Shown: positions 7,752-8,684 of the stretch, one piece after another
Layout of the letters: each line of letters starts with the position of its first letter
How positions within the stretch are numbered: position 1 is the stretch's first letter
Source: a virus
DNA: 10,427 bases
Strand: one strand, 5' to 3'
UHGV virus genome: UHGV-1714787
The notes under the pieces: generated by a model
Seen by the model: only the letters and a program-made list of their open reading frames with translations
Database searches by the model: none
Told to the model about the DNA's origin: nothing
Translations under genes and position numbers: made by a program

Positions 7752-8684
7752 CTAGCGGATCCCGTCCCCCACAAAATTACCGTTACCGGCATAAATATGA
7801 GCCGGGGTATTTTTATTGGATGGCGTGGACTCGCGCCCCATCTCGTTCAACAGCTTTTCGCGGGCCTGCTCCAGCGAACATTCAGGATCGGCAAGACACT
7901 GAGCCTGCAGCGTCTGATAACGCCCGCCAAACATGGCAAACAGATCATTAATACCGTTTACACGCGCTTTTTGCTCTGCCAGTACCTGCGCACGGATACT
8001 GTTTTCATCCACCACGGGTGCTGCTGCCTGCACTGGCGTCCGGGAGGCTGCAGGTTCATTATCCTGTACGCGTGGAGCACTGTTGCGTGGCGGAGTAATC
8101 ATGTTTCGAATGGATTCCGGCATCTTTGTAAATTCCTCTGTACGTTTTGACTGAATACATGCCATTGCCTTAACGGCTGGCGTCACCTGATCAGCAAATC
8201 CATGTGCCAGACATTCGGCACCGGACATCCAGGTCTCATCCGCCAGCATGGCAGCAATTTCATCGGTGGTTTTCCCGGTTTTCTGTGCATAAGCGGGTAA
8301 CAGAACCGCCTCAACCTTATCGAGCAGGTCGGCATAGGTGCGCATGTCCTCCGCATCACCGCCCGTAAAGCCAAATGGTTTATGAATCATCATGAAGGTG
8401 TTTTCCGGCATAATGACCGGGTTTCCCACCATCGCAATGATCGACGCCATTGACGCCGCCACACCGTCGACATAAACGGTAATGGACGCACCATGTGTTT
8501 TCAGCGCATTAAAAATGGCGATGCCTTCAAAGACATCGCCACCCGGTGAATTGATATGGAGATTAATGTGGGTGATATCGCCCAGTGCATTCAGATCACT
8601 GATAAACTGCTTCGCTGTAACACCCCAGAAACCAATCTCGTCATAAATATAAATATCCGCGTCACTCTGGTGACCAGCCTGCAT
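7752..8684 (-). CDS. Prohead maturation protease, ClpP (S14) family, with C-terminal scaffold-like extension
   Basis: ClpP-like motifs are present: INSPGGDV, a likely catalytic Ser in GVAASMAS and His in MIHKP, close to the canonical ClpP ...INSPGG..., ...AASMG... and ...IHQP... motifs. The C-terminal ~120 aa are Ala/Gln/Pro-rich and non-protease-like, consistent with a scaffold domain. Start chosen at ATG 8684..8682 (MQAGHQSDADIYIYDEIG), 13 nt after the portal stop; the track N-terminal extension to 8945 would overlap the portal gene by ~250 nt and is rejected. Confidence 0.85.
   Translation of the reverse strand: MQAGHQSDADIYIYDEIGFWGVTAKQFISDLNALGDITHINLHINSPGGDVFEGIAIFNALKTHGASITVYVDGVAASMASIIAMVGNPVIMPENTFMMIHKPFGFTGGDAEDMRTYADLLDKVEAVLLPAYAQKTGKTTDEIAAMLADETWMSGAECLAHGFADQVTPAVKAMACIQSKRTEEFTKMPESIRNMITPPRNSAPRVQDNEPAASRTPVQAAAPVVDENSIRAQVLAEQKARVNGINDLFAMFGGRYQTLQAQCLADPECSLEQAREKLLNEMGRESTPSNKNTPAHIYAGNGNFVGDGIR

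Follow-up and report, generated by a model that had tools for sequence, protein, structure and literature searches.

In bacteriophage lambda, genes C and Nu3 reportedly encode a protease-scaffold protein and a scaffold nested in frame within it (Shaw and Murialdo 1980), the shorter, 3'-co-terminal assembly protein being made from an internal start in the protease-containing gene; the capsid protein E is the product of a separate gene. Co-terminal proteoforms, of which the longer carries the maturation protease into the procapsid, are also found in phage Mu (I/Z) and in herpesviruses (UL26/UL26.5), again with the capsid protein encoded by a separate gene. In HK97, the protease gene (gp4) and the gene for gp5, which combines a helical assembly module with a major capsid protein (MCP) of the HK97-fold type, are likewise separate. 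The prophage Gifsy-2, by comparison, is said to possess a tripartite capsid gene (Effantin et al. 2010, Virology 402:355). A passage in a citing paper divides this gene into a ClpP-like protease, a central presumed scaffold and the MCP (PMC12315714), and in Pseudomonas phage MD8 a single gene, that of gp5, encodes protease, scaffold and MCP, in a description that makes no mention of an internal start (PMC8508860). A full-text literature search, outside of which the primary Gifsy-2 paper lay, found no statement of an internal start in these fusion genes. Here we report on the UHGV virus genome UHGV-1714787, a DNA stretch of 10,427 nucleotides (hereafter the window) that represents the head-tail module of a lambdoid Escherichia coli phage, with all relevant genes on the minus strand. 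Its protease open reading frame (ORF) contains an internal in-frame ATG that a preliminary description had proposed as the start of a Nu3-like nested scaffold gene. We found that this ORF makes up only the 5' portion of a tripartite capsid gene of the Gifsy-2 type (protease-scaffold-MCP, NCBIfam NF045540), and that the ATG, together with the Shine-Dalgarno (SD) sequence ahead of it, probably marks a conserved internal start.

The preliminary description had placed an in-frame ATG at the boundary between the ClpP-like domain and the C-terminal extension, with AGAGGAA about 10 nt upstream, and was correct on each of these points (Table 1). The ATG opens a stretch of 123 codons running to the TAG that ends the protease ORF, and this nested ORF begins MPESIRNMITPPRNSAP... 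Since the ClpP-type domain ends at residue 168, Met188 lies 20 residues past it and is followed by a short conserved peptide and a Pro/Ala/Gln-rich linker. From the window alone, the combination of ATG and SD is not significant, because 41 of the 378 ATGs in the window (10.8%) match the anti-SD sequence equally well; the ORF itself has 14 in-frame ATGs.

A total of 80 fusion-gene loci were collected, one genome per species, with protein identities of 49-100%, from Enterobacterales, Pasteurellaceae, Pseudomonas, Shewanella, Psychromonas and Photobacterium. Removal of near-duplicates resulted in 68 non-redundant genes (<95% nt identity), from which a codon alignment was built. Met-Pro occupies the internal position in 80/80 loci, and all 68 non-redundant genes have an ATG there with the Pro codon next in every case. 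The codon five positions before the ATG ends in G in 66 of these genes (GAG in 55, CAG in 7 and AAG in 4), and the other two read GGA-GAC, yielding AGGAG. The wobble G of this codon (codon 183, position 8136) ranks first of 588 degenerate wobble columns for conservation, and the wobbles flanking it vary freely. Gene-wide, G-ending codons make up 37% of those for Glu, 29% for Lys and 58% for Gln, so the conserved wobble G goes against codon usage. A naive independence probability for this G (10^-29) was rejected as a measure of significance because the sequences are related, and the column rank was used instead. The second most conserved wobble of the gene is that of codon 180, which reads AAA in 57 of 58 Lys codons. 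This codon lies 22-24 nt upstream of the internal ATG and 9 nt upstream of codon 183, in an A-rich stretch (TCAAAACG), and may be part of the ribosome-binding region.

The spacing of the SD proved to be as constrained as its composition. In 65 of the 68 genes the GG is found at -13/-12; two genes have it at -15 and one has it at -10. The codons that provide it are those for Glu-Glu, Glu-Asp, Gln-Glu, Lys-Asp/Glu or Gly-Asp; two Psychromonas genes have one codon fewer, and in these Met-Glu (ATG GAG) supplies the GG at the kept spacing. The anti-SD duplex is at or below -4 kcal/mol in 68/68 genes. Gifsy-2 reads GAGGAG-N9-ATG at Met221 and phage MD8 reads CAGGAG-N9-ATG at Met220. The sole other conserved in-frame ATG with an SD-like run is Met114, where the run of G is due to obligatory Gly-Gly codons. 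The predicted mRNA accessibility around the internal site has a median at the 86th percentile within each gene, and no conserved RNA structure was found around the site by RNAalifold (consensus -0.14 kcal/mol). Because the wobble G runs counter to codon usage and different codon pairs recreate the GG at the same distance, protein-level selection cannot explain the pattern. As read from the alignment, the start codon and the SD appear to be conserved beyond what the protein requires, as evidenced by synonymous-site constraint and fixed spacing.

A comparison set was made up of nine fusion genes that carry an unrelated protease of the HK97/S78 type (NCBIfam NF045541), from the phages Rhodobacter RcMamaDuck, Stenotrophomonas S1, Ralstonia YO041_1, Bordetella PBb001, Vibrio VP882, Achromobacter Mano, Pseudomonas PPpW-3, Vibrio 1.055.O and Shewanella 1/44. 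All nine genes have a Met at the junction between protease and linker with a purine-rich SD-like run a few nt upstream; it is the first Met past the protease motif in eight of them and the second in the Ralstonia phage. The SD of the junction Met is at or below -5.5 kcal/mol in 8/9 genes, as against 8.8% of the other ATGs in the same genes (binomial P about 3e-8, or about 3e-6 when related pairs are merged to give 7 lineages), and three of the nine junction products also begin Met-Pro. These observations suggest a general origin in which a protease gene became fused to a downstream scaffold-MCP gene by stop-codon loss, with the downstream gene keeping its own start. We regard as an evenly balanced proposition the wider claim that in protease/scaffold-MCP fusion genes, with a ClpP-like protease as well as with one of the HK97/S78 type, the internal start is generally what has been retained of the ancestral capsid gene's own ATG and ribosome-binding site, and that these genes would thereby give an abundant scaffold-MCP and a rarer protease-tethered form.

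For the window and its relatives, the comparative data make it likely that the ATG at 8123..8121 and its GAGGA constitute a genuine, evolutionarily conserved internal initiation site within the Gifsy-2-type tripartite gene, from which intact relatives would obtain two co-terminal products. Several observations weigh against this interpretation. The internal SD is of moderate strength (GAGGA, about -6 kcal/mol), and its spacing of 10 nt is rather long for an SD. Since the SD at the 5' end of the gene is much stronger (-11.6 kcal/mol), initiation at the internal ATG is not necessarily the more frequent, and the ratio could favor the long form. The column rank, too, was obtained within a single alignment whose sequences are related. 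Conservation of Met-Pro and of the acidic residues around it extends to the amino-acid level, and selection on the protein could give part of the signal. No natural variants split exactly at the internal Met were found, and a search of the accessible literature for initiation data (ribosome profiling, N-terminal proteomics or toeprints) in any family member found none. Two candidates for a split variant were rejected: P0213 does begin with MP, but this call lies at one edge of a contig of 1.5 kb, and P0208, which appeared to have separate protease and scaffold-MCP genes, is a frameshifted draft with an A9 run, in which the family motif continues in another frame. Several further matches among those listed in the representative search likewise align from the first query residue onwards; some, at least, of the ones inspected were frameshifted or fragmentary calls, and these matches were not taken as independent evidence.

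The identity of the gene was established from its domains. Pfam and NCBIfam agree on a ClpP-related head-maturation protease, with limits, counted from ATG 8684, of residues 23-168 for the Pfam CLP_protease model and 9-167 for Clp_rel_HeadMat; the top-scoring models are ClpP/S14, and SppA_dom (S49) gives 22 bits only against a cut-off of 155. The MCP part, which has a weak Pfam Mu-like_gpT match as well, lies in the same frame as the protease-scaffold ORF, with the TAG and two codons between them. Relatives have a continuous ORF of 652 amino acids (aa) from ATG 8684, or 675 aa from GTG 8753, and in phages that are 99% identical the fusion is one ORF of 1959 nt; in E. coli genomes the RefSeq name is 'ClpP-like prohead protease/major capsid protein fusion protein'. 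Against the NF045540 model, which has a cut-off of 475 bits, an intact 99%-identical relative scores 985 bits and the 123-aa piece of the window 97.9 bits. Since a TAG stands at codon 311, the window copy, which lacks the one uninterrupted ORF scoring above this cut-off, is a disrupted member of NF045540, the members of which include Gifsy-2, Fels-1 and the Pseudomonas F10/MD8 group. The ORF that the preliminary description had regarded as a protease-scaffold gene is hence a truncated protease-scaffold-MCP fusion. GenBank labels for this same fusion gene are inconsistent and range over 'major capsid protein', 'head-tail preconnector protein Nu3', 'protease C', 'scaffolding protein', 'terminase protein' and 'head maturation protease'; the nested product is annotated in none of the phage records examined.

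The full-length ORF more likely starts at GTG 8753 than at ATG 8684 or TTG 8945, the starts given by plain ORF lists. The SD of ATG 8684 amounts to only -2.2 kcal/mol compared with -11.6 kcal/mol for the GTG, and the GTG start and its strong SD are conserved across the Enterobacterales members. The 333-aa product from GTG 8753 has an exact match on record, this start having been chosen by the gene callers of public assemblies. A structure model was calculated for an intact 675-aa relative using a 21-sequence alignment; its mean pLDDT was 35.6, and only the scaffold helices were usable. In the numbering of the nested product, the predicted helices span residues 40-63, 70-78 and 84-97 and have pLDDT values of 54-84, the model being otherwise poor. 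Among solved structures there was no close relative of the capsid part, only the distant capsids with a Mu GpT domain (E=6e-4).

Table 1. Features of the protease-scaffold-MCP locus and its neighbourhood in the window
Feature	Coordinates	Strand	Remarks
Internal in-frame ATG	8121..8123	-	Met188 from ATG 8684, Met211 from GTG 8753; in frame of the ORF ending at TAG 7754..7752
Internal SD-like AGAGGAA	8133..8139	-	9-nt spacer to ATG; core GAGGA 8138..8134, 10 nt to ATG; GG at -13/-12
Post-domain segment PAVKAMACIQSKRTEEFTK with putative internal ribosome-binding region	8124..8180	-	Holds the two most conserved wobbles: codon 183 GAG 8138..8136 and codon 180 AAA 8147..8145
Nested ORF	7752..8123	-	123 codons plus stop; 31 diverse homologues share its architecture; not covered by a dedicated Pfam family
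Nested ORF, N-peptide MPESIRNMIT	8123..8094	-	
Nested ORF, Pro/Ala/Gln-rich variable linker	8093..8010	-	
Nested ORF, helical core	8009..7833	-	
Nested ORF, conserved TPAHIYAGNGNFVGDGIR motif	7808..7755	-	GNGNFVGDGIR motif
SD AAAGGAGG for full-length product	8759..8766	-	5-nt spacer to GTG 8753; anti-SD duplex -11.6 kcal/mol
GTG, probable true start of full-length gene	8751..8753	-	Best SD among in-frame candidate starts; overlaps last 56 nt of portal gene
ClpP-related head-maturation protease domain	8181..8660	-	Pfam PF00574 E=1.7e-36; NCBIfam NF045542 Clp_rel_HeadMat 215.8 bits (cut-off 120); PDB ClpP matches
MCP part (Phage_capsid_4 / Mu gpT-like)	6726..7745	-	Pfam PF25209 E=1.9e-55; frame identical to protease-scaffold ORF
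Amber TAG in place of Gln311 CAG	7752..7754	-	C>T change (plus-strand G>A at 7754); splits the fusion gene
Lambda-type portal	10206..8698	-	Limits by homology; stop 8700..8698; directly precedes protease ORF
Gene order after portal		-	Protease ORF, MCP (7745..6726), cement/decoration protein, Gifsy-2-family head-tail protein
Gene order, distal part		-	gpZ, gpU, tail tube, G/T chaperones, tape measure, gpM

The TAG that separates the scaffold from the capsid part was traced to a single nucleotide. The codon is CAG in PhiR55_1, Tritos, 1720a-02 and L005, and in the window the TAG falls just after the conserved GNGNFVGDGIR motif, 6 nt before the in-frame ATG 7745. The segment is present in 1892 of 5426 complete E. 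coli genomes (about a third); among the matches listed, the best 60 of the 1892, none was 100% identical to the TAG allele and all differed by one base in 211. A TAG-containing 27-mer gave 0 matches in IMG/VR and in JGI metagenome contigs, as compared with at least 120 matches for the CAG version in IMG/VR. The TAG allele and the exact truncated product were found only from the human gut metagenome run ERR589787. In the window, the MCP would have to use ATG 7745 as a start of its own, which has a weak SD (-4.1 kcal/mol) and at which the wider family does not keep a Met. The free scaffold of about 123 aa that the preliminary description had proposed would accordingly arise in the window copy only, because it depends on this unique amber mutation; given that the host ORF is a truncated protease-scaffold-MCP fusion, the conserved nested product of the family would be a scaffold-MCP of roughly 465 aa. 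It is the cutting in two of the fusion gene by the TAG that made the locus look like a lambda-style protease with a nested scaffold.

Over 1.2 kb around the internal ATG, the identity to phages Tritos, PhiR55_1, cdtI, mEp460 and others is 98-99.5%, and a contig of run ERR589787 matches the window identically over 5676 nt. On this contig (L085 1..130; window 10356..10427, minus strand), a transposase ORF of the IS66 family, present with its 3' end (...KVDLSSQ*), and the terminus of the insertion sequence (IS; ...GAGCCGCTTAC) adjoin a gpW/Ad1-like head-tail gene that is without its 5' end, just upstream of the portal gene. The prophage seems to have been cut off at this point, ahead of the portal gene. 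Because the amber allele is rare and the matching contig has the IS66 truncation, we take the window copy to be, most likely, a prophage in decay and its amber codon to be a pseudogenising change, and in view of the IS disruption we doubt that this copy is able to make phage. No sigma-70-like promoter was found in 7600..8900; a second product would therefore be owed to internal initiation rather than to a transcript of its own. For the opposite-strand ORFs at 7664..8154, neither a Pfam match nor other support as genes was found.

Comparison with the described systems groups the window with Gifsy-2. The gene family (NF045540 'scaf_prot_MCP1') and the domain order are the same, the scaffold part of the window is 44% identical to that of Gifsy-2, and both Gifsy-2 and MD8 carry the internal SD and ATG as the window does; the difference lies in the amber codon, which stands between the scaffold and MCP parts in the window. 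With lambda, the window would share the principle of a shorter product from an internal start, and it shares the neighbourhood, a lambda-type portal being located upstream and a decoration protein and lambda-like tail genes downstream. However, lambda C is annotated as an S49 family peptidase whereas the protease of the window is ClpP (S14)-like, and the annotated Nu3 start lies within the protease domain and has a poor SD, unlike the one in the window, which is at the domain boundary. The intact fusion family also differs from lambda in that its nested product would include the capsid protein. An hhalign comparison of a 31-sequence scaffold profile detected no homology to lambda Nu3 (probability 0.2%, E=0.35), and BLASTP of whole lambda C against the window protein gave a weak match (E=8e-4, 24% identity) in an alignment that includes the protease half. 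What stands of the earlier Nu3-like proposal is thus the logic of internal initiation, as evidenced by the ATG in 68/68 genes and an SD kept by synonymous-site selection and fixed spacing; a free Nu3-like scaffold as the product under selection does not. Since similarity to Nu3 is not detectable and the start position differs, 'Nu3-like' refers to logic only and not to descent.

The predicted nested product, a putative helical assembly module followed by an MCP of the HK97-fold type, would have the layout of HK97 gp5, and the internal start is placed as the gp5 start is relative to the gp4 protease gene. In HK97 these are two genes, whereas in the window family the protease frame runs on into the scaffold-MCP frame. 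The two systems also differ in the fold of the protease, which is ClpP-like in the window, and in the subfamily of the MCP, which there is Mu gpT-like (PF25209). The MCP of the window belongs to the same broad family as Mu gpT, according to the weak Mu-like_gpT match and the distant matches to Mu GpT-domain capsids mentioned above. The herpesvirus UL26.5 has its own promoter, and none was seen at the site in the window.

Three other explanations for the conserved ATG and SD were considered. One is that no internal initiation takes place, Met-Pro and the upstream Glu-Glu being kept for reasons of the protein, for instance as the end of the C-terminal helix of the protease or as a site of maturation cleavage or recognition, with the SD-like run as a by-product of acidic codons. 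The segment SKRxEEFxxMPxxhK is indeed conserved as protein in all family members, the GA-rich codons of Glu and Asp tend to resemble an SD, and an SD as good is found at one in about nine ATGs of the window (the 10.8% given above). A by-product of acidic codons would not, however, account for a first codon that ends in G in nearly all genes against codon usage, nor for replacements by Gln (CAG), Lys (AAG), Gly-Asp (GGA GAC) and Met-Glu (ATG GAG) that all restore the GG at the same distance from the ATG, and the same combination of junction Met and SD recurs in the unrelated S78-type fusion family; we consider this explanation quite unlikely. It is also conceivable that the SD-like sequence serves as a translational pause or another signal at the level of the mRNA, for instance for folding of the protease domain or mRNA processing, and that the ATG is kept for protein reasons rather than as a start. 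Selection at the nucleotide level is what the alignment shows and its purpose is what we infer from it, and the site is located exactly between two folded modules, as would suit a pause. For a pause there would nevertheless be no need to hold the sequence at a constant 9-11 nt from an ATG that never varies, no conserved RNA structure accompanies the site, and the junction Mets of the S78-type genes have differing SD sequences yet always a start codon at start-like spacing. Pausing at internal SD-like sequences is itself disputed, which further counts against this possibility, and we judge it unlikely.

The remaining explanation is the literal form of the earlier proposal, namely that a lambda-like two-gene layout has been selected, with a protease-scaffold protein, a free Nu3-like scaffold of 123 aa and a separate capsid gene. 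The window sequence as it stands encodes exactly such a layout, and the split falls at a position that would suit it, just past the GNGNFVGDGIR motif and with an ATG 6 nt after the stop. Yet the stop is a single C>T change that is absent from the relatives examined, the listed complete genomes of E. coli, IMG/VR and the JGI metagenome contigs; the exact truncated product is on record from one gut sample only, and the same contig has the IS66-family element that truncates the gene beside the portal gene. The capsid ATG, with its weak SD and lack of conservation as Met in the wider family, and the lack of detectable Nu3 homology argue against it as well, and we consider a selected two-gene layout highly improbable.

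The interpretation that we favor, a conserved internal start in a tripartite gene, leads to the following model, in which actual initiation, the product ratio and the roles of the products are inferred from the sequence features and their conservation. Intact relatives would use two starts on one late mRNA. The 5' start, which in enterobacterial members is the GTG with its strong SD, would give the full-length protease-scaffold-MCP of about 675 aa, and the internal ATG a scaffold-MCP of about 465 aa with the same C-terminus, which would correspond to HK97 gp5 (delta-domain and capsid). The cases of lambda C/Nu3, Mu I/Z and UL26/UL26.5 of herpesviruses suggest by analogy that the shorter form would be the main building block of the procapsid and that the longer form would carry the protease into the shell, where the protease and scaffold parts would be removed. 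In the window copy, the TAG at codon 311 would end both products before the capsid part, resulting in a 333-aa protease-scaffold and a free 123-aa scaffold and leaving the capsid protein to start alone at ATG 7745.

Further downstream, the window contains a lambda-type pair of tail assembly chaperone genes at 3521..4287 on the minus strand, a gpG-like Phage_TAC_2 gene (4287..3859) followed by Phage_tail_T (3850..3521). As in lambda G/GT, a programmed -1 frameshift would be expected in this pair; the pair does not contain the slippery heptamer of lambda, GGGAAAG, of which the sole copy in the window is located at 6258..6264.

Fused protease-scaffold-capsid genes are common, occurring in about a third of complete E. 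coli genomes, in the Gifsy and Fels prophages of Salmonella, in Pseudomonas LES prophages and F10/MD8-like phages and in some Stx-converting phages. Current records list a single product under varying names, and the accessible literature likewise assumes one product, so that a second product would bear on annotation, and it would also be of relevance to defence systems that sense capsid proteins and to the engineering of phage-like particles. The window locus itself is to be read as a prophage copy that carries a mutation and has been disrupted by an IS, rather than as a C/Nu3 pair of the lambda type; if the model is true, its amber allele would be a one-step snapshot of a tripartite gene breaking up into a layout like that of lambda C/Nu3 plus E. 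We provisionally regard the intact gene as a new version of the nested-scaffold theme, in which the nested product would carry the capsid protein. A T=7 head has about 415 coat subunits. The puzzle of a fusion gene is that the capsid needs hundreds of coat subunits and presumably far fewer copies of the protease, and a conserved internal start would resolve it simply: the rarer, protease-tethered subunit would guarantee that the protease is packed into the procapsid, and the ratio between the two start sites would set the stoichiometry.

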